Source: a virus
Strand: one strand, 5' to 3'
Length of the DNA stretch: 64,000 nucleotides
IMG/VR virus record: IMGVR_UViG_3300033571_019687
Location: 69,875 to 133,874 of that record
Part shown: piece after piece, positions 55,120-64,000 of the stretch
How positions within the stretch are numbered: position 1 is the first letter of the stretch
Layout: each line of letters starts with the position of its first letter
The notes under the pieces: model-generated
What the model saw: the letters and a program-made list of their open reading frames with translations, nothing else
What the model was told of the DNA's origin: nothing
Databases searched by the model: none
Made by a program: the position numbers and the translations under genes

Positions 55120-55796
55120 ATTTACTTATAAAATTTCCAACTAGACAGCGACCAGATACATTCATTAGAGTATTGGGATTATATAGAAGCCATTTAAGCG
55201 GTCTTAATAGAGTTAAGTTTTTGATTAGTTGTGATAATGATGATCCAACAACTAATAATGATAATTTTAGGAAACGTGTACATAAAGTATTATCAGATAT
55301 AGAATATGAAATTGATTATGCTGATAATAAAAACAAAATACAAGCAATAAATGCCGGACTAACCTCAGAACGATTAGATGGATTTGATGTAATACTTTTA
55401 GCATCAGATGATATGATTCCGGTAAAATATGATTATGATGATTATATTGCAGAAGATTTTGAAGAACATTTCCCTGACTATGATGGTGTATTATGGTACA
55501 ATGATGGGTACCAAGCTAAAAATTTGAATACATTACCTATATTAGGTGTTAAGTATTTTAATAGATTTGGTTATATTTATCACCCATCTTATTATTCTTT
55601 ATGGTGTGATAATGAGTTTATGGATGTTGCAAGTATTTTACATAAACAGGTTTATATAGATGAGATTATAATTAATCATCAACATCCGGTTTGGACTAAT
55701 CAACCTTGGGATGATTTACAAAAGAAAAACGATATGTTTAATAATACAGATCGTGAAAACTATTATAAAAGAAAATCAAACAATTTTGACCTATGA
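55104..55796 (+). CDS. GT-A (GT2-like) glycosyltransferase
   Basis: FPTRQRP, CDNDD, K..AIN.G, ILLASDD (DxD-like), WCDNEF, IINHQHP. Confidence 0.72.
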   Translation: MDYRMNLLIKFPTRQRPDTFIRVLGLYRSHLSGLNRVKFLISCDNDDPTTNNDNFRKRVHKVLSDIEYEIDYADNKNKIQAINAGLTSERLDGFDVILLASDDMIPVKYDYDDYIAEDFEEHFPDYDGVLWYNDGYQAKNLNTLPILGVKYFNRFGYIYHPSYYSLWCDNEFMDVASILHKQVYIDEIIINHQHPVWTNQPWDDLQKKNDMFNNTDRENYYKRKSNNFDL

Positions 55797-56371
55797 GCAT
55801 TTATAGCATACCAACAGTACCTGAATACAGTAATACTAACTTAATCAATGTAGATATTTTTTCAAAACTATTAAAAAATAGAGAAATCCTTTGTTTCGGT
55901 GAAATATCACAAGAAACATCTATAATGATTAATAGTCAATTACTTTACTTAGATTCTGTAAGCGATGATCCAATCACGATTTACCTTAATTCGGGGGGAG
56001 GATCGGTTTATGATGGTTTAGCCATAATAGATACGATGCGTTATATTACTTCGGATGTTAAGATTGTATGTACTGGAGTATGTGCATCTATGGCAGCAGT
56101 TATATTAGCATCTGGTGATCAAAGATATGCAACCCCTAATTCACGAATTATGCTACATCAGGTAAGCACTGGTGATTATGGTAATATAAATGATCTTAAT
56201 GTTACTATAAAGGCAACAAATGAATTAAATGATCTAATTACAAGTATAATGTCTGATACTATGGGTATCACCAAAAGAAAGTATAAGTCATTAACTAATA
56301 GAGATCTTTGGCTTACACCAAAAGATGCTATTAAATATAGAATAATTGATGGGATACAAATATCTAAGTAA
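55793..56371 (+). CDS. clpP: ClpP-like serine protease subunit
   Basis: LNSGGGSV..GLAI.D, CASMAA (Ser), IMLHQ (His), RDLW (Asp). Confidence 0.92.
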   Translation: MSIYSIPTVPEYSNTNLINVDIFSKLLKNREILCFGEISQETSIMINSQLLYLDSVSDDPITIYLNSGGGSVYDGLAIIDTMRYITSDVKIVCTGVCASMAAVILASGDQRYATPNSRIMLHQVSTGDYGNINDLNVTIKATNELNDLITSIMSDTMGITKRKYKSLTNRDLWLTPKDAIKYRIIDGIQISK

Positions 56372-57835: not shown

Positions 57836-59341
57836 ATGCAACAATTCGAGACCATAGCTGATTTAGTAAAGAATAATGTAGACCTACTTTTGCAATATGA
57901 AAAAGATGGTTACAATAAAACTCAAATGGCAAATGCACTACTTGCTACGCATAATACTGATTTTGATCCAGAATCTGTCAGAAAAGCAATCTCTAGGTAT
58001 TTAAACAAATATCATATAGAAAAGATTGAGGAAAATGATGATGAACAAAATCTGGAACAAGAATTAAAAGATGAGTTTACAAAAGATGAATTAGATAGTC
58101 TTAAGGTAAATTATGAGTATGGTGAAAAATTCCATTATGACGAAAAAAATGATGCTTATATATTTTATATTAGAGGCAGAGTTTTAAGATTTAATGGGAT
58201 TGCTATAAGAGCTATGAAAGATAGCTATAGTAATTTAGTAAGTCGTGGGTTGACTATAAATCAAATATGTGCTGCTTATGAAATACCTCGTGATATTTTT
58301 ACTAGAATTAAAACTTATCTTGGTTGGACAAAAGATTCTTTACCTTTAACTAATGAAGAATTAATTGATGTAGATGTTGATCAAGTAACAGATGATTTAG
58401 TTCAAAAGAAAATATTTAGCATTTCTCAAAAGTATAATCAGAAACTAACCAAATATACAGAAGATGCTGCCGCTAAATATATTAGTTTAACTACAAACGA
58501 ATTAAATCCATTTATATCACTAATTAATAAGGCTCAAGAAAATTATCAAAGACCAACATTTGTATTAAGTCAACATAAAGAAACTGCACTTGTTATATCA
58601 CCATTTGATTTACATTACGGTAAATATGCTTGGTTTGGTGAAACTAATGATACCTATAATAGAGATATTGCTAGAAAGAGATTAATTGAAAGTACCAATA
58701 AATTATTATCAGATGCAAAAATCTATAACCCAGAAAAAATTATTGTACCTATCGGTAGTGATTTTTTCCATATAGATAAACCAGAAAAAACCACAACTGC
58801 CGGTACACCACAAGACACTGATGGTACTTATGTACAAATTATGGTTGAAGGTAATATGTTGATGGTTGATTTTATTGAATTATTAAGACAAGTTGCACCA
58901 GTTGAATTATATTTAGCAGCAGGTAACCATGATTATAATTCATCTATAATGTTGCAACAATATTTATCCGCATATTATAAAGATACTGCTGATGTAACAG
59001 TATTCAATATGCAAACAAATAGACAGTATTCATTATATGGTGAAACCTTATTAGGGTTTACACATGGTGATACTGCCAAAATGAAAGACTTACCTATGCT
59101 TATGGCAAATGAGGCCAAAGATATGTGGTCAAAAGCAAAAAATAAAGCATTTTTTGTTGGTCACTTACATAGCGAAAAAGTTGTCGATGCATCCGGGGTT
59201 AAAGTTTATCAAATGCCATCATTATCAGGATCTGATAGGTGGCACCATAATAACGGTTATATCGGATCAGTAAAAGGTATGGCAGCATACGTTGTTGATA
59301 AAACCGAAGGAATTAAAGTAACAATTTTATCTAATTTATAA
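57836..59341 (+). CDS. N-terminal helical/HTH-like region fused to a calcineurin-like metallophosphoesterase
   Basis: DLHYG, GSDFFH, GNHD, HGD, GHLH. Confidence 0.75.
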   Translation: MQQFETIADLVKNNVDLLLQYEKDGYNKTQMANALLATHNTDFDPESVRKAISRYLNKYHIEKIEENDDEQNLEQELKDEFTKDELDSLKVNYEYGEKFHYDEKNDAYIFYIRGRVLRFNGIAIRAMKDSYSNLVSRGLTINQICAAYEIPRDIFTRIKTYLGWTKDSLPLTNEELIDVDVDQVTDDLVQKKIFSISQKYNQKLTKYTEDAAAKYISLTTNELNPFISLINKAQENYQRPTFVLSQHKETALVISPFDLHYGKYAWFGETNDTYNRDIARKRLIESTNKLLSDAKIYNPEKIIVPIGSDFFHIDKPEKTTTAGTPQDTDGTYVQIMVEGNMLMVDFIELLRQVAPVELYLAAGNHDYNSSIMLQQYLSAYYKDTADVTVFNMQTNRQYSLYGETLLGFTHGDTAKMKDLPMLMANEAKDMWSKAKNKAFFVGHLHSEKVVDASGVKVYQMPSLSGSDRWHHNNGYIGSVKGMAAYVVDKTEGIKVTILSNL

Positions 59342-59346
59342 ACATC

Positions 59347-59556
59347 ATGGAAACACTAAAAAATATCTTCAATCTAGTTTTTAATAGATCATTAACAAAT
59401 AATCTTATTGCTGCTGCAATTTTAGTAATATCAAGTTTACTCTTATTGTTTAACGTTATTACTCTTACTGGGGCATTTATAATGAATTTATACCCTATTA
59501 GTTTATTTCTAGTAAATTTTGTTAGAATGTTGTTAACATTAGTTAAAAAGAATTGA
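59347..59556 (+). CDS. Small membrane protein
   Basis: Two hydrophobic segments. Confidence 0.5.
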   Translation: METLKNIFNLVFNRSLTNNLIAAAILVISSLLLLFNVITLTGAFIMNLYPISLFLVNFVRMLLTLVKKN

Positions 59557-60056
59557 TTATGGCTAAAAATAAAAATACCGAAAATAAAGTTGTAGATGTC
59601 ACTAAACTTGTATTTAAGAAAGCTGATGGTACTAAAATACCTGATATAGTATCTTATGTAGATGATTGGCGATTAACACACCCCAATTCAGAATTATTTA
59701 TAGGTTGTGACTCTATTGATAAAAAGTACATGACAAAATACTCAATAGCTATTGTTATGTATGATAAAGGTAAAGGTGGTCACGTAGTAACTGCTGAAAC
59801 AGAAGATAAAGGTAATATGGAAATCATGCAAAGATTATGGCCTGAAATTGAACAATCTGTTAATACAGCAAAACTATTGGAACAACTAAATATACCAATA
59901 ACTATACATATTGATTACAATAATGAGAAAACTTATAAAAGTAATCAATTATTAGATGCAGCTATCGGGTATGCAAATTCAGTAGGATTTAAAGCGGAAG
60001 GTAAACCTAATGCACCAGCAGCTTCTTACGCAGCAGATAAAAATTGTAGAAAATAG
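59553..60056 (+). CDS. RNase H-like YkuK family protein
   Basis: LFIGCDS, RLW.E...S, IHIDYN, KP.A.AASYAAD. Confidence 0.75.
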   Translation: MIMAKNKNTENKVVDVTKLVFKKADGTKIPDIVSYVDDWRLTHPNSELFIGCDSIDKKYMTKYSIAIVMYDKGKGGHVVTAETEDKGNMEIMQRLWPEIEQSVNTAKLLEQLNIPITIHIDYNNEKTYKSNQLLDAAIGYANSVGFKAEGKPNAPAASYAADKNCRK

Positions 60057-60107
60057 TTGAACTTTTTACAAATCACTACTATTTATATCTAAACAGTAAT
60101 AATACAA

Positions 60108-60203
60108 ATGTTCCATAATAAACATATCGTTAATGTAATCAATCCGGATAATAACGGGGATTATAGAGGTATGTGCTTAGGGGGCGGCACAATTATAACC
60201 TAG
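60108..60203 (+). CDS. 31-aa small ORF (MFHNKHIVNVINPDNNGDYRGMCLGGGTIIT)
   Basis: Translated by hand; CTATTTA upstream, TAG-TAG-TAA stops, terminator downstream. Below the track cutoff. Confidence 0.4.
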   Translation: MFHNKHIVNVINPDNNGDYRGMCLGGGTIIT

Positions 60204-60229
60204 TAGTAAAAAAAACTGCAAATATAATA

Positions 60230-60272
60230 AAAATCCCCGAAGATACCAAACATTTTCGGGGATTTTTATTTT
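60230..60272 (+). terminator. Intrinsic terminator insulating the tRNA locus
   Basis: AAAATCCCCGAA / TTCGGGGATTTT stem plus T-run. Confidence 0.85.
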
Positions 60273-60281
60273 TGGGTAAAA

Positions 60282-60313
60282 TTTGGAAGTTACGATACCT
60301 TATACTATATTTG
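60282..60313 (+). promoter_or_regulatory. Bacteroidota promoter P1
   Basis: TTTG, 20 nt, TATATTTG. Confidence 0.8.
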
Positions 60314-60366
60314 CAACATGAAACCGAAAGCGGATGAGCCTAGGTGAAAAAAAAAGTGAAAAAATA

Positions 60367-60398
60367 TTTGGTGGTACCAAAAACTTCACTTATATTTG
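60367..60398 (+). promoter_or_regulatory. Bacteroidota promoter P2
   Basis: TTTG, 20 nt, TATATTTG; A-tract upstream. Confidence 0.82.
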
Positions 60399-60432
60399 CA
60401 TCATCAAATCCGAACGAGGAAATGATTAACAT

Positions 60433-60508
60433 GGTGAACATAAGTTAATAGGAATAAACTGCTAGACTGTGAATCTGGTAAATGCGAGTTCGAGTCTCGT
60501 TGTTCACC
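60433..60508 (+). tRNA. tRNA-His(GTG) with encoded G-1
   Basis: G-GTGAACA / TGTTCAC-C acceptor, loop CTGTGAA, T-loop TTCGAGT. Confidence 0.9.
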
Positions 60509-60529
60509 CAAAAAAAAACTTGACAAAAA

Positions 60530-60561
60530 TTTGGATAAGTGAAAATCTTACCTTATATTTG
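60530..60561 (+). promoter_or_regulatory. Bacteroidota promoter P3
   Basis: TTTG, 20 nt, TATATTTG. Confidence 0.82.
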
Positions 60562-60610
60562 CAAGACCAATGACAAAACGATGTCAACGGTAAAAAAAGT
60601 TGAAAAAAGT

Positions 60611-60642
60611 TTTGGTAATTCAAAAAATTATTCTTAACTTTG
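60611..60642 (+). promoter_or_regulatory. Bacteroidota promoter P4
   Basis: TTTG, 20 nt, TAACTTTG. Confidence 0.82.
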
Positions 60643-60673
60643 CAAAACAGAAATCAAATACGACTGATTTCAT

Positions 60674-60687
60674 AAGTTCTTTGACAT
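60674..60687 (+). promoter_or_regulatory. boxA-like antitermination element
   Basis: AAGTTCTTTGACAT resembles rrn boxA (TGCTCTTTAACA); about 30 nt downstream of P4. Confidence 0.55.
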
Positions 60688-60759
60688 AGCAGCAACTATA
60701 AGATGGTAGCTAAATATCGAAAGATGTTTGAGCAGTGATTCAAAGTCACATCCATCACA

Positions 60760-60886
60760 CTAGAATAGTTAAGATTAGATTTACATCTGGAAAATAAAAC
60801 TATCTAAAATTGTTTTTAAAAGGTTCAAGCCCTTTAACCGATAACTAATAGTTATCGTCGCTTAATCTATTCAATATTCTTTCTAG
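60760..60886 (+). ncRNA. TTACATC-family RNA copy A (Y-RNA-like)
   Basis: TTAGAT-TTACATC-[8 nt]-AAAACT-ATCTAA; T-arm-like AAAGG-TTCAAGC-CCTTT at 60819-60835; outer CTAGAA/TTCTAG. Confidence 0.6.
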
Positions 60887-60893
60887 TATTTAT

Positions 60894-60968
60894 GCAGTAA
60901 TAGCTCAGTTGGTTTAGAGTATTGTCCTTCCAAGTCAAGGGTCGTGGGTTCGAGCCCCACTTACTGCT
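60894..60968 (+). tRNA. tRNA-Gly(TCC)
   Basis: GCAGTAA / TTACTGC acceptor, loop CTTCCAA. Confidence 0.92.
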
Positions 60969-61044
60969 CAAAGATCATTCATTATTAATAATAATTGTGG
61001 AATAACATCTGTCAACTTATTAGTAATTTTGATCTTTATCTTAC

Positions 61045-61117
61045 GGTGGTAAGGTCAAATGGTTAAGATGTCTCACTGTCTATGAGTACGGAGCGGGTTC
61101 GACTCCCGTTATCACCG
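61045..61117 (+). tRNA. tRNA-Asp(GTC)
   Basis: GGTGGTA / TATCACC acceptor, loop CTGTCTA, G73. Confidence 0.9.
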
Positions 61118-61119
61118 CA

Positions 61120-61212
61120 TGAACTTGTGCCAAAATCTGCATCACTAGTTGCAGTACCTAATCAGGAGGTTATAAGCAGCGTAATTTAATACGCAAACGC
61201 CTGATAAGTTCA
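61120..61212 (+). ncRNA. Unidentified structured RNA
   Basis: TGAACTTGT / ATAAGTTCA closing stem, internal hairpins, possible ACCT/AGGT + TCAGG/CCTGA pseudoknot. Confidence 0.5.
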
Positions 61213-61220
61213 AAAACATC

Positions 61221-61291
61221 CTTGAGATAGCTCATTGGTAGAGTGTCATATTTGGTTATGACTGGTAGGTGGTTCGATTCCATCTCTCAAG
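61221..61291 (+). tRNA. tRNA-Pro-like (TGG) with a 6-nt anticodon loop
   Basis: Good acceptor, D and T arms; TCATA-TTTGGT-TATGA. Confidence 0.6.
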
Positions 61292-61293
61292 GC

Positions 61294-61367
61294 GCAGTAA
61301 TAGCTCAGTTGATTAGAGTATAACCTTGCCAAGGTTAGGGCCGTGGGTTTGAATCCCACTTACTGCT
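61294..61367 (+). tRNA. tRNA-Gly(GCC)
   Basis: Same acceptor as Gly(TCC); loop TTGCCAA; T-loop TTTGAAT. Confidence 0.85.
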
Positions 61368-61372
61368 CACAT

Positions 61373-61464
61373 ATGGTAAATATTGATTTACATCTGGAAA
61401 ATAAGGTTCGACTCCTTGTTTGCTACTATTAGGCAAATTATAATAATCAGTATAAAATTCCCAT
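61373..61464 (+). ncRNA. TTACATC-family RNA copy B (T-arm + closed acceptor-like stem cargo)
   Basis: ATATTGAT-TTACATC-[AAGG-TTCGACT-CCTT, GTTTGC..GCAAA]-AATA-ATCAGTAT. Confidence 0.7.
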
Positions 61465-61471
61465 GTATTAC

Positions 61472-61546
61472 ACTCGCATAGCTCAGTAGGTTTAGAGCAT
61501 CTGACTGATACTCAGAAGGCCATAGGTTCGAGTCCTATTGTGAGTA
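61472..61546 (+). tRNA. tRNA-Ile(GAT)
   Basis: ACTCGCA / TGTGAGT acceptor, loop CTGATAC. Confidence 0.9.
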
Positions 61547-61550
61547 CAAC

Positions 61551-61709
61551 GTGTTAATTATCGCAAGAGATAACGCTTAATCATTTCCGACATATTTAAT
61601 GACTTTATGGGGGTTTTGTCATTAAATAGCAATTTGCGCTTTTGTTGTCCATAGTCGATGTTGAAGTTATTTGTTATTTTTAACTTGCGATCTCTTGCGG
61701 TTTTAACAC
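61551..61709 (+). ncRNA. Unidentified long multibranched hairpin RNA
   Basis: GTGTTAA/TTAACAC and TCGCAAGAGA/TCTCTTGCGG outer helices; TATTTAATGAC/GTCATTAAATA inner helix. Confidence 0.55.
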
Positions 61710-61715
61710 TATTTT

Positions 61716-61787
61716 GGTTCCATAGTTTAAAGGATAAAACTACTGGTTTCTACCCAGTCGTTGGGGGTTCGATTCCCTCTGGAACTA
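61716..61787 (+). tRNA. tRNA-Arg(TCT)
   Basis: GGTTCCA / TGGAACT acceptor, loop TTTCTAC. Confidence 0.9.
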
Positions 61788-61789
61788 CA

Positions 61790-61868
61790 TTGTGCATAGT
61801 CATTCAGTGATTTACATCAAGCCCTTTCTCGGTTTACCAAAAACAATCATTGGTTCATTCTTGCACAA
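61790..61868 (+). ncRNA. TTACATC-family RNA copy C
   Basis: CAGTGAT-TTACATC-[20 nt hairpin AAGCC-CTTTCTC-GGTTT]-AAAAACA-ATCATTG; outer TTGTGCA/TGCACAA. Confidence 0.75.
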
Positions 61869-61875
61869 AACTTAT

Positions 61876-62022
61876 TGATAACAAATTGTTGTTAAATAGT
61901 GATTTACATCCATTTCAAGGGGGAAACGTTGGTTCAAATCCAACCTGTGCTGTCACCAGCCGGTCGTCTAGCGGTAGGACACTCAAAAAAACAATCATTA
62001 TACCATTCTCATTTTGTTATTA
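61876..62022 (+). ncRNA. TTACATC-family RNA copy D carrying a circularly permuted tRNA-Glu-like domain
   Basis: TAGTGAT-TTACATC-[3' half TTC..T arm, linker, 5' half D arm]-AAAAACA-ATCATTA; outer TGATAACAAA/TTTGTTATTA. Confidence 0.78.
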
Positions 62023-62029
62023 AACTTAC

Positions 62030-62110
62030 TGATAATTATTGCAGTGAATTAAACATTTACATCTAATTTGGAAAGAAAAACAATGTTTATATAATTCTCG
62101 ATAATTATTA
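62030..62110 (+). ncRNA. TTACATC-family RNA copy E (minimal cargo)
   Basis: TAAACAT-TTACATC-[12 nt]-AAAAACA-ATGTTTA with compensatory stem changes. Confidence 0.75.
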
Positions 62111-62118
62111 AACTCATT

Positions 62119-62249
62119 AACTGTGGTAAATTTATGATTTACATCTAAATCAGCGTGTCATTGGTTCAAGTCCAATTAAGTTCAAAAGACTTATAGCTCA
62201 GACGGTAGAGCAGCCGACTAAAAACATGATCATAGAGTAATTCCCAGTT
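62119..62249 (+). ncRNA. TTACATC-family RNA copy F carrying a near-complete circularly permuted tRNA
   Basis: TTATGAT-TTACATC-[74 nt]-AAAAACATG-ATCATAG; outer AACTG/CAGTT. Confidence 0.8.
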
Positions 62250-62254
62250 TTTTT

Positions 62255-62311
62255 CGCTTAGTTGAATGCAATGAGAATATATCTCAGTAGGCTCGATTCC
62301 TACCTAAGCGA
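62255..62311 (+). ncRNA. 57-nt tRNA-like mini-RNA (acceptor + T arm, no D stem, no anticodon loop)
   Basis: CGCTTAG/CTAAGCG, GTAGG-CTCGATT-CCTAC, TGAGA-ATATA-TCTCA. Confidence 0.6.
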
Positions 62312-62356
62312 CATCAGTATATATTGGTGCGAATCCAGTTTTAAGGATTAAAATAT

Positions 62357-62430
62357 AGCGGGTGGTAGCAGTTGGTAGCTCGCAGGGCTCATAACCCTTG
62401 AGGTCGTCGGTTCAAGTCCGACCCCCGCCA
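62357..62430 (+). tRNA. Initiator-type tRNA-Met(CAT)
   Basis: 1:72 mismatch, GGG/CCC anticodon stem, loop CTCATAA. Confidence 0.85.
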
Positions 62431-62466
62431 CTATTATACAATTTCTTGTTGTTGTATAATATATTT

Positions 62467-62541
62467 GACTGTGAAGCTTAAGTGGTATATAGCGTTCGCC
62501 TGTTAAGCGAAGGACAGTAGGTTCGAGTCCTACCACAGTCG
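62467..62541 (+). tRNA. tRNA-Asn(GTT)
   Basis: GACTGTG / CACAGTC acceptor, loop CTGTTAA, G73. Confidence 0.92.
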
Positions 62542-62552
62542 CAAAAAAAATA

Positions 62553-62584
62553 TTTGCAAATATCAAAAACTTGTTGTATCTTTG
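62553..62584 (+). promoter_or_regulatory. Bacteroidota promoter P5 (internal to the cluster)
   Basis: TTTG, 20 nt, TATCTTTG. Confidence 0.82.
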
Positions 62585-62590
62585 CAATAT

Positions 62591-62860
62591 CAAATCACAG
62601 TAAGTGATAAAGATAAAGTCCGATCCAAAATAAATGTCGGTATTTTGGTGATGGCTTAATATGAAAATAACCGACATACCATATTCCAGATGGTTAAACT
62701 AAAGGTGAACTGGAATAGGTTGATTTATTATGCGCAGAATAGTCAATCGAAAAACTTTTTAAAGATTGTTAGGATCTTTAAAAAGAACCAAAAAATATCC
62801 TAACCGTGGCTACAGCGAAAAAAATGTGGCAGGTGAAGCTTCCTGCCTAAACGGAAGCAA
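62591..62860 (+). ncRNA. Pseudoknot-rich RNA resembling the mRNA-like part of tmRNA
   Basis: AUG-less frame ending LVMA-TAA in a hairpin loop, then three H-type pseudoknots (see findings). Confidence 0.55.
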
Positions 62861-62864
62861 TTTT

Positions 62865-62945
62865 GGGAGTGTTGGGCAATTGGCTGGCCCACCTGACTGT
62901 AAATCAGGCCTTAATCGCTTGTAGGTTCGAATCCTACCACTCCCA
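62865..62945 (+). tRNA. tRNA-Tyr(GTA)
   Basis: GGGAGTG / CACTCCC acceptor, loop CTGTAAA, long variable region. Confidence 0.92.
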
Positions 62946-62960
62946 CTTAGTTAATACAAT

Positions 62961-63033
62961 GTCCTCGTAGCTTAGCAGGTAGAGCCTTCCACTTTTAATG
63001 GAAATTGCGTGGTTTCGACTACCACCGAGGACA
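62961..63033 (+). tRNA. tRNA-Lys(TTT)
   Basis: GTCCTCG / CGAGGAC acceptor, loop CTTTTAA. Confidence 0.9.
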
Positions 63034-63036
63034 CAT

Positions 63037-63104
63037 TGTTTGGTAGCTTAATTAAAGCCCTTGATAGTACTGAGGCGATGCAAGTTAAAATCTTGCCCAA
63101 ACAA
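63037..63104 (+). tRNA. Degenerate tRNA-like gene, identity undetermined
   Basis: Perfect TGTTTGG/CCAAACA acceptor and D/T stems; T-loop TTAAAAT; poor anticodon arm around TAGTAC. Confidence 0.5.
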
Positions 63105-63142
63105 AAACATGGTTCATAATACGTTTATCGTGATTATGAATA

Positions 63143-63214
63143 GGTTTGTAGCTTAATGGTTAGAGCAGTTTGATTTTAATCAAATGATGGTAGGTTCGAG
63201 CCCTATCCAAACCA
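63143..63214 (+). tRNA. tRNA-Lys-like gene with a 6-nt anticodon loop and 6-bp acceptor
   Basis: TTTGA-TTTTAA-TCAAA; GGTTTG/CAAACC. Confidence 0.55.
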
Positions 63215-63225
63215 CCTTAGTTTAA

Positions 63226-63299
63226 GGGCTATTAGATCAATTGGTTAGATCACCTGACTCATAATCAGTAGGTTACAGGTTCGAGTCCTGTATGGCCCA
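63226..63299 (+). tRNA. tRNA(CAT), probably Ile2 (lysidine type) rather than elongator Met
   Basis: GGGCTAT/ATGGCCC acceptor, loop CTCATAA; Ile2 assignment inferred from resemblance only. Confidence 0.8.
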
Positions 63300-63377
63300 C
63301 GTAGTATAAATAAAAATTTTGCCGCAAAGCACGAAAAGTGCAGGTTATGTAGACGTGCATAATAAGGATTGGTTTAA

Positions 63378-63500
63378 GAAGAGGAGTTTGTGAATGATAT
63401 TATGATGTTTATGACATCATTATCAGGTCGTTTATATGGTTCACGCAGTGCAAAACGTAGGAAAAAAATAAAAGAAGATAAACAAAAAGAAAAATGTTAA
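63378..63500 (+). pseudogene. C-terminal remnant of an IS607-family serine recombinase TnpA
   Basis: EEEFVNDIMMFMTSLSGRLYGSRSAKRRK follows an in-frame TAA; catalytic N-terminus absent. Confidence 0.7.
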
Positions 63501-64000
63501 AGGGTGTTAAAATAAGGTTATATCCAAATAAAGAACAAGAAATTATATTTAATGGTTTGCTTGGTGGGTATCGCTTTGTTTATAATTCCGCTTTATCATA
63601 TAAAATAACCAAATACGAAACTGAAAGTAAATCAACTTCATTATCTGATACAAGCCATTATTTTCACCAAGATTTAAGAAATAACCATGACTGGTTAAAA
63701 GCACACAATACAAAAGTCATTAAGCAAGGTCTAAGAGATTTGGAAGTTGCATATAAAAATTTCTTTAAAAATGGTCGTGGGTTTCCTAAGTATAAGTCAA
63801 GGAAAGATGAACAACGTTGTCGTTTCCCTAAAGAAGCTGTGGCAAAAGACACATTTAAGAATGATATGTTAAACCTAACCAAAACTATTAATGGTATTAA
63901 TTTCTCGTGTTCTGAAAGAGATAGAAATTATCTATACAAAAATAAAGAGGGTATAAAGTCGGTTACCGTTATTAAAACTAAAACTGGTAAATATTTTGCA
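63494..64000 (+). mobile_element. tnpB: TnpB RNA-guided nuclease, N-terminal part, runs off the window
   Basis: Hand translation: MLKGVKIRLYPNKEQ...GGYRFVYNSAL...LEVAYKNFFKNGRGFPKYKSRK. Absent from the ORF track because no stop is reached. Confidence 0.88.

Follow-up and report, generated by a model that had tools for sequence, protein, structure and literature searches.

Clusters of tRNA genes in phages are increasingly viewed as modules of counter-defence and translation takeover, and the non-tRNA RNAs that lie in them, from T4 RNAC and RNAD onward, are mostly of a function that is not known. Tobamovirus RNAs combine an upstream pseudoknot domain with a tRNA-like end. We know of no documented form of phage tmRNA that consists of the message part only. 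Phage tmRNAs as such have been documented, including a form with the tRNA-like domain alone (PMC4131195, PMC7162821). RNAC and RNAD of T4 are stable small RNAs of unknown function from a phage tRNA cluster (PMC9697503), and GOLLD and ROOL are large RNAs found beside phage tRNAs (PMC12286853). ToxI and the pseudo-ToxI of phages are built of tandem repeats of one 36-nt pseudoknot unit and are processed by the toxin (PMC3475682).

The element described here was analysed in a window (the whole stretch of DNA under study) that comprises the final 64 kb of a 133,874-nt IMG/VR phage contig, for which the completeness estimate is 43%. The phage is large and combines T4-like traits with Bacteroidota-type promoters. 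All positions are those of the window unless a related record is named. The reading that we favour, with moderate confidence, is that 62591–62864 encodes an orphan non-coding RNA, which forms the P5-driven 5′ leader of five tRNA genes and is freed by RNase P.

Locus, promoter and transcript ends

Positions 60280–63300 form a cluster with 13–14 tRNA genes, five promoter copies and several non-tRNA RNAs. The element fills the 322-nt gap from tRNA-Asn (62467–62542) to tRNA-Tyr (62865–62946), all on the same strand, and the genes of five tRNAs (Tyr, Lys, Thr, an odd one and Met) follow it as a sub-operon. The tRNA-Tyr gene was called by both ARAGORN and Rfam and begins 6 nt after the last pseudoknot of the element (PK-d, below), and no terminator was called between the two. 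The signals that would define the ends of the RNA are as follows.

62553–62584, + strand: promoter P5, of the Bacteroidota primary-sigma type, with TTTG at −33 (62553–62556), a 20-nt spacer and TATCTTTG at −7 (62577–62584)
62859–62864, + strand: 3′ tail AATTTT, which runs to the predicted site of RNase P cleavage (U at −1 and G at +1 relative to tRNA-Tyr)

Five aligned copies (P1–P5) of a TTTG-N20-TAnnTTTG promoter occur in the tRNA cluster, and P5 shares 77% identity over 52 nt with P2; this recurrence as a promoter repeat bears out the proposal of the initial annotation that the element has a promoter of its own. Host RNA polymerase would start the RNA at P5, near 62591, and the product would be the 5′ leader of a tRNA-Tyr-Lys-Thr-X-Met transcript. 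From the general course of tRNA processing, RNase P would be expected to cut at 62864/62865, and this cut would release the element RNA. It had also been claimed that the RNA finishes just ahead of tRNA-Tyr and contains no tRNA-like domain. Both statements hold: the element reaches the 5′ end of tRNA-Tyr, and no tRNA, T-arm or tmRNA was called inside 62543–62864.

Other features of the cluster were recorded alongside. An array of YrlA-type Y RNA (RF02553) lies nearby; the element is not of this type, the only weak match (17.8 bits) falling on tRNA-Tyr/tRNA-Lys at 62919–62985 and the TTACATC motif of the local Y-RNA copies being absent from 62543–62864. Two tRNA-like genes (61221–61293 and 63143–63216) have abnormal anticodon loops, one of 8 nt read as 'ttgg' and one of 6 nt read as 'tt', and may be tRNAs of a frameshift or decoy type. 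Rfam detected a CAT-anticodon tRNA (62359–62430) at just 30.9 bits, and ARAGORN missed it; its acceptor/T-stem register looks irregular. Directly past the cluster, a TnpB gene (IS605 OrfB, HTH_OrfB_IS605; 63494–64000), preceded by a 36-codon ORF (63390–63500), is cut by the contig end. Genomic matches to the TnpB fragment reach at most 42% identity and lie in Firmicutes and one Methylobacillus genome, so that TnpB gives no clue to the host.

Predicted fold of the element

Modelled from its single sequence, the RNA of ~270 bases very probably folds as four consecutive pseudoknots. Its body would consist of a 5′ hairpin and then four classical H-type pseudoknots, for which the first stem (S1), second stem (S2) and loops (L1–L3) are given below.

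62594–62608, + strand: 5′ hairpin ATCAC/GTGAT with loop AGTAA (MFE and centroid folds)
62625–62677, + strand: pseudoknot PK-a (pseudoknot finder); S1 CCAAAATA (62625–62632)/TATTTTGG (62641–62648), L1 = A, S2 ATGTCGG (62634–62640)/CCGACAT (62671–62677), L2 = 0, L3 = 22 nt
62678–62715, + strand: pseudoknot PK-b; S1 ACCAT/ATGGT, L1 = A, S2 TTCCAG (62684–62689)/CTGGAA (62710–62715), L2 = 0, L3 = 15 nt
62718–62748, + strand: weak central hairpin GGTTGATT/AGTCAATC with two G–U pairs (helix list, MFE fold)
62755–62804, + strand: pseudoknot PK-c; S1 CTTTTTAAAGAT/ATCTTTAAAAAG of 12 bp, L1 = T, S2 GTTAGG (62768–62773)/CCTAAC (62799–62804), L2 = 0, A-rich L3 of 13 nt
62828–62858, + strand: pseudoknot PK-d; S1 GGCA/TGCC, L1 = 6 nt, S2 GCTTCC (62838–62843)/GGAAGC (62853–62858), L3 = TAAAC

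The seven helix pairs proposed in the initial annotation all proved perfectly complementary in place, and the three H-type pseudoknots that it listed (PK-b, PK-c and PK-d) were each recovered by a custom pseudoknot finder, which added PK-a as a fourth. A stop codon had been assigned to the loop of a hairpin ATGTCGG/CCGACAT. The pairing and the position of the stop were confirmed; ATGTCGG sits in the loop enclosed by S1 of PK-a, so that the 'stop hairpin' becomes the second stem of a pseudoknot. PK-b adjoins PK-a with zero spacer, and the central hairpin, which alone is not significant, lies in the 39 nt that separate PK-b from PK-c. In three of the four pseudoknots a single-nucleotide L1 spans an S2 of 6–7 bp, L2 is zero and L3 is A-rich; adenine makes up 30 of the 55 L3 nucleotides (55%) compared with 39% across the element. 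S2 of PK-c can be extended to 8 bp, with S1 paying for the extension. PK-d, with an S1 of 4 bp and an L1 of 6 nt, is the weakest of the four; it falls in a loose class of which the contig has many examples, and alone is not significant.

Pseudoknot energies were calculated as rough sums only. On this scale the pseudoknot and nested values are −13.4 to −16.0 versus −13.6 kcal/mol for PK-a, −8.4 to −11.0 versus −4.5 kcal/mol for PK-b and −14.1 to −16.7 versus −12.2 kcal/mol for PK-c. PK-a competes with a 13-bp plain hairpin (62634–62646/62664–62677) and PK-d with a plain hairpin GGCAGG/CCTGCC, the energies in the latter case being near-degenerate. Overall, PK-b and PK-c lie clearly below the best nested folds, and for PK-a and PK-d the pseudoknot and the plain hairpin come out roughly equal. 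The + strand of the whole gap has a folding energy of −73.6 kcal/mol (z = −4.1 versus shuffles).

Under loose rules the contig has a background of 1.5–1.8 pseudoknots per kb and other clusters of three to five; because pseudoknots of the loose class are this common, the loose count at the element is not special. A strict class was defined by an S1 of at least 5 bp, an L1 of at most 2 nt, L2 = 0, an S2 of six Watson–Crick base pairs and an L3 of 2–30 nt. The 134-kb contig contains nine such pseudoknots on the + strand and ten on the − strand. Of the nine, three fall within 180 nt at 62625–62804, and no other strict-class cluster of two or more was found in the contig. Related phage loci (2.02 Mb, both strands) contain 81 strict pseudoknots, with one pair and no triple. 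When the element was shuffled 50,000 times with its dinucleotides preserved, a single strict pseudoknot appeared in 316 of the shuffles and two or more in none. The strict-class triple has no counterpart in 2.3 Mb of real phage sequence, and the structure signal far exceeds chance. The minus strand at the element holds no strict-class pseudoknot. A single nucleotide is long enough, as L1, to bridge the deep groove of an S2 of 6–7 bp, and too short, as L3, to bridge S1; this stereochemistry, taken with the asymmetry between L1 and L3, points to the + strand, which is also that of the promoter and the tRNAs. Two phage tRNA regions were inspected for comparison. The tRNA cluster of Cellulophaga phage phi4:1 has no pseudoknot cluster, and the region upstream of the tRNAs of phage P1 has no strict-class pseudoknots and carries a GC-rich RNA of a different type from the element.

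Further motifs within the element were noted. On the minus strand, 62818–62847 (GGCAGGAAGCTTCACCTGCC then ACATTTTTTT) resembles an intrinsic terminator; S1 of PK-d and the preceding A-tract form its complement, no minus-strand gene lies near, and such sites are as numerous as expected from shuffles. At 62634–62681 a 13-bp hairpin (ATGTCGG/CCGACAT plus TATTTT/AAAATA) followed immediately by ACCA has the look of a tRNA minihelix that finishes in a discriminator and CCA. The motif is internal and its 3:70 pair is G–C, and the likeness is probably a coincidence. The motif GGTGA(T/A)/AGGTGA, whose complement lies in the 16S 3′ tail beside the anti-Shine–Dalgarno sequence, occurs three times in the loops of PK-a, PK-b and PK-d (62647–62652, 62703–62708 and 62831–62836), compared with ~0.2 expected in what was a post hoc count. 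A reading of the PK-a and PK-b loops U-GUC-G and U-UCC-A as Asp and Gly anticodon loops (GAC, GGA) was rejected as post hoc, a 5-mer match being expected by chance (estimate).

The main rival to a freed RNA is a cis-acting leader, whose pseudoknots would tune the downstream tRNA genes via alternative folds; we regard it as unlikely, while giving it real weight. The site lies directly between promoter and tRNAs with no terminator before tRNA-Tyr, and mutually exclusive helices are present. PK-a and PK-d are close in energy to their plain hairpins, TATTTTGG can pair upstream (in PK-a) or downstream (in the long hairpin), GGCAGG/CCTGCC at S1 of PK-d could alternate with a GCTTCC/GGAAGC hairpin that, with UUUU, would act as a weak terminator, and TCCAAAAT (62624–62631) can pair with ATTTTGGG (62860–62867) across the RNase P site. 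However, the U-tract has only four U residues and was not called as a terminator, the competing helices are short and AU-rich, and four pseudoknots far exceed the needs of a switch. The element matched no riboswitch or leader family, and no ligand or effector candidate emerged. Rfam at gathering thresholds returned only tRNAs from the window, a permissive Rfam search of the element gave no family at E ≤ 10 beyond noise, and permissive cmscan searches of its two halves gave only noise matches to miRNA and snoRNA models, with no preQ1, SAM-II, pistol or other riboswitch or ribozyme.

It is improbable that the gap instead serves one or more small protein genes, for example from ATG 62690 to TAA 62804–62806 (37 residues, basic), whose translation the RNA structure would control. 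Frame 0 is unusually open, with three stops in 91 codons against 9–10 in the other frames, and the list of open reading frames includes the ATG-started ORF of 37 codons (62690–62803). So few stops would be expected at ~2% per frame (Poisson, our own arithmetic), which is unremarkable when three or six frames are considered. The start codon, moreover, is hidden within PK-b. The 47-residue stop-to-stop translation had one match, a spurious one to a repetitive protein, among 1.84 billion representative proteins. The coding signal is much weaker than the structure signal.

Relation to tmRNA

Canonical one-piece tmRNAs are encoded by five related phages (RF00023, 72–88 bits); in G001, G003 and G004, those checked, the gene leads the tRNA cluster. 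The four located below measure 418–444 nt.

L099:1501–1940, − strand: tmRNA of a related phage
L098:1501–1918, − strand: tmRNA of a related phage
L100:1501–1944, − strand: tmRNA of a related phage
L101:1501–1940, − strand: tmRNA of a related phage

The tmRNAs of the relatives read GGGGCUG...CAGCUCCA, with G3–U70 and a T arm, are mutually 67–84% identical and encode a conserved tag of 23 residues, GENPFF[VAI]LAGL..EVAL[AV]A. ARAGORN misses them; for annotation, the phage lineage thus encodes tmRNAs with a conserved tag that this program overlooks. The phage studied here retains the flanks of the tmRNA site and has no tmRNA between them.

60603–60687, + strand: promoter P4 and the box GTTCTTTGACAT, orthologous to the promoter and post-tmRNA spacer in related phages

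The tmRNA promoter of G001 and G003 (...TTTGCTGAACAGAAAT, then G1 of the tmRNA) aligns with P4 at 60608–60654 (...TTTGCAAAACAGAAAT), and their post-tmRNA spacer (CAAATA...CAGTTCTTTGACAT) aligns with 60655–60687. The local alignments stop exactly one base before G1 of the tmRNA and restart past the tmRNA, with nothing between the two parts here. Since P4 and the box are both present with nothing between them, the tmRNA was either lost from the P4 site or never gained there. The tmRNA history of the lineage raises the prior for a tmRNA-derived reading of the element; a tmRNA remnant would, however, be expected at the P4 site, whereas the element lies 2 kb from it and follows a copy of a different promoter.

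The initial annotation had read the element as a tmRNA-derived module, the message-plus-pseudoknot half without the tRNA-like domain, which would act in trans or as an SmpB/ribosome decoy. We consider this very improbable, also in a form in which the module would work with a mini-RNA at 62255–62311. A string of pseudoknots is a hallmark of tmRNA, and the element has four of the H type; five relatives have a canonical tmRNA in the tRNA cluster, absent here behind the orthologous P4; and the proposed message ends in ...LVMA-UAA in a loop.

62594–62659, + strand: AUG-less open frame ITVSDKDKVRSKINVGILVMA (translation), ending ...DKDKVRSKINVGILVMA before the stop TAA at 62657–62659

This frame, its stop and the in-frame codons GAT (62606) and GTC (62636) are all as had been described. 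Its role as a message fared worse. The frame overlaps S1 and S2 of PK-a and would be buried in these stems, neither helix 2 nor PK1 is present upstream of it, and its peptide is unlike the conserved tag of the relatives (GENPFF.LAGL..EVALAA). An open frame of 22 codons arises by chance at ~14% per frame (our own arithmetic from base composition), and one would turn up here about one time in three.

Descent from tmRNA found no support in any of the three profile searches. With Infernal in permissive mode, the best RF00023 score at the element was 6.4 bits, on the promoter only (gathering score 47), and across the contig the hits of the model were confined to T-arms of tRNAs and a single tRNA-Arg fragment. 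The tmRNAs of the relatives act as positive controls: at 72–88 bits they make Infernal a valid test in this lineage, which the element fails. An nhmmer profile of four of these tmRNAs found nothing in the contig at E ≤ 10. A covariance model of the tag, helix 5 and PK2 of the relatives (R3), run over 59000–64000 with filters off, gave 2.6 bits at 62750–62843, which is inside the noise. ARAGORN -m, run on the whole contig, called no tmRNA; since it also misses the tmRNAs of the relatives, its silence on the element counts little. The element has a G+C content of 34%, against 45–46% in two of the relatives' tmRNAs (an aligned pair), and no SmpB gene was found on the contig (~43% of the genome) or in the records of 15 relatives; the SmpB of the host could serve.

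Other components fit the scheme no better. The mini-RNA (57 nt, 62255–62311) is tRNA-like, with a 7-bp acceptor, a short capped helix and a T arm, and has no D arm and no G3–U70. Against the tRNA-like domain of the relatives it scores 41, within the range of ordinary phage tRNAs (34–50), and its predicted pairing with the element is weaker than that of shuffles. With likeness at the tRNA level, no G3–U70 and no pairing, a split tmRNA is not supported. A ClpP-family protein (55793–56371) had been proposed as the reader of the tag; its best PHROG matches are head-maturation protease families (1e-41 to 1e-21), which makes it a weak candidate for that role. The gene itself sits among glycosyltransferase and DNA-repair genes, not among head genes. 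A search of the contig for antisense targets of the element gave a longest match of 13 nt, AT-rich and not significant.

As judged from these comparisons, the element is not a tmRNA or a detectable tmRNA derivative. The fallback offered with the module, an unrelated pseudoknot RNA, survives: the evidence favours it and lends no support to tmRNA descent.

Homologues, function and comparison with known systems

Searches for homologues returned no match. The element was compared by blastn with 50,697 phage records and by blastn and nhmmer with the tRNA clusters of the relatives; exact and gapped patterns (the 12-bp hairpin, the 5′ part of tRNA-Tyr and a local Y-RNA 20-mer) were sought in IMG/VR, and two exact patterns in JGI metagenome contigs. 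Single-sequence covariance models of PK-a with PK-b (R1) and PK-c with PK-d (R2) found nothing in 1.07 Mb of loci or in the whole records of 15 relatives. A possible origin by decay from genes of the relatives was discarded, the element having no similarity to any frame or ORF of their clusters. The nearest relatives (43–48% protein identity) have protein genes, not pseudoknot RNA, before tRNA-Tyr. For the neighbouring exonuclease (57836–59341), the closest proteins in a large protein collection are 99% identical, from one 7.9-kb Logan contig, and the next at most 50%; among the IMG/VR relatives its identity is 43–48%. In G001, the interval from tRNA-Asn to tRNA-Tyr (L083:5165–5330, − strand) holds a Bacteroidota-type promoter CTTAACTTTGC and then a tRNA-like RNA with a long insert, a closing stem AATCGCGA...TCGCGATT and a T-loop GGTTCGAATCC; in the corresponding interval of G003 a tRNA-Pro was called.

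With the element a single sequence, and with loose-class pseudoknots common in the genome and clustered elsewhere, the fold might be taken for a functionless chance array of AT-rich inverted repeats in a spacer. This, too, is highly unlikely: the strict triple is unmatched in both real and shuffled sequence, the asymmetry of L1 and L3 fits the transcribed strand and a dedicated promoter stands directly upstream. Least probable of all is a type III antitoxin mimic like the pseudo-ToxI of phage PhiTE, neutralizing a host endoribonuclease of the ToxN/AbiQ type: phage pseudoknot RNAs that neutralize ToxN are documented (PMC3475682) and the host-type promoter would probably give early expression, but Tandem Repeats Finder found no tandem repeats, the element has no direct-repeat family and its four units share no sequence.

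For the orphan RNA freed by RNase P, our guess is that it would be compact and resist nucleases, and that it would bind protein or act as a decoy early in infection; such a stable protein-binding or decoy function is favoured over that of a message. A bolder reading, to which we assign a low probability, is that of a free-standing RNA made of a pseudoknot string, kept or evolved after the loss of tmRNA behind P4, that would perform some of the work of the tmRNA body, for instance as a ribosome/SmpB decoy blunting host trans-translation; or, alternatively, that of the first of a class of multi-pseudoknot decoys which the phage expresses with its tRNAs against host RNA-targeting defences. The element is a compact case with a clear and testable architecture, four textbook pseudoknots set between a promoter of their own and a defined 3′ end, in a phage without tmRNA whose sister phages carry a canonical one. 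Should it bind ribosomes, SmpB, RNases or defence proteins, it would represent a new phage use of RNA structure; should it bind none of these, it would still offer a clean natural model of tandem pseudoknots.

Compared with the known systems, the element has in common with tmRNA (SsrA; RF00023) the run of H-type pseudoknots, the setting in a phage tRNA cluster, the Bacteroidota-type promoter and an open frame that ends in hydrophobic residues and Ala with its stop in a loop; it differs in having no tRNA-like domain, G3–U70, helix 2, PK1 before the frame or (A)CCA end. Like the RNA of tobamoviruses, it places consecutive small classical pseudoknots directly 5′ of a tRNA-shaped unit, but here that unit is a genuine tRNA gene, which RNase P should remove; tobamoviruses also have hosts of another kingdom and a genome of another type, and the likeness implies no homology. 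ToxI and pseudo-ToxI are likewise multi-pseudoknot and phage-borne, whereas the four units of the element differ in sequence and size. It has no Rfam match to GOLLD or ROOL and is much smaller than these, with purely classical pseudoknots. T4 RNAC and RNAD offer a parallel: the element, too, is a non-tRNA RNA within a tRNA cluster, on the same strand and with predicted co-transcription, the likeness being one of position. It is most likely to be grouped with such stable RNAs, other than tRNAs, that phage tRNA clusters encode, of the T4 RNAC/RNAD type.
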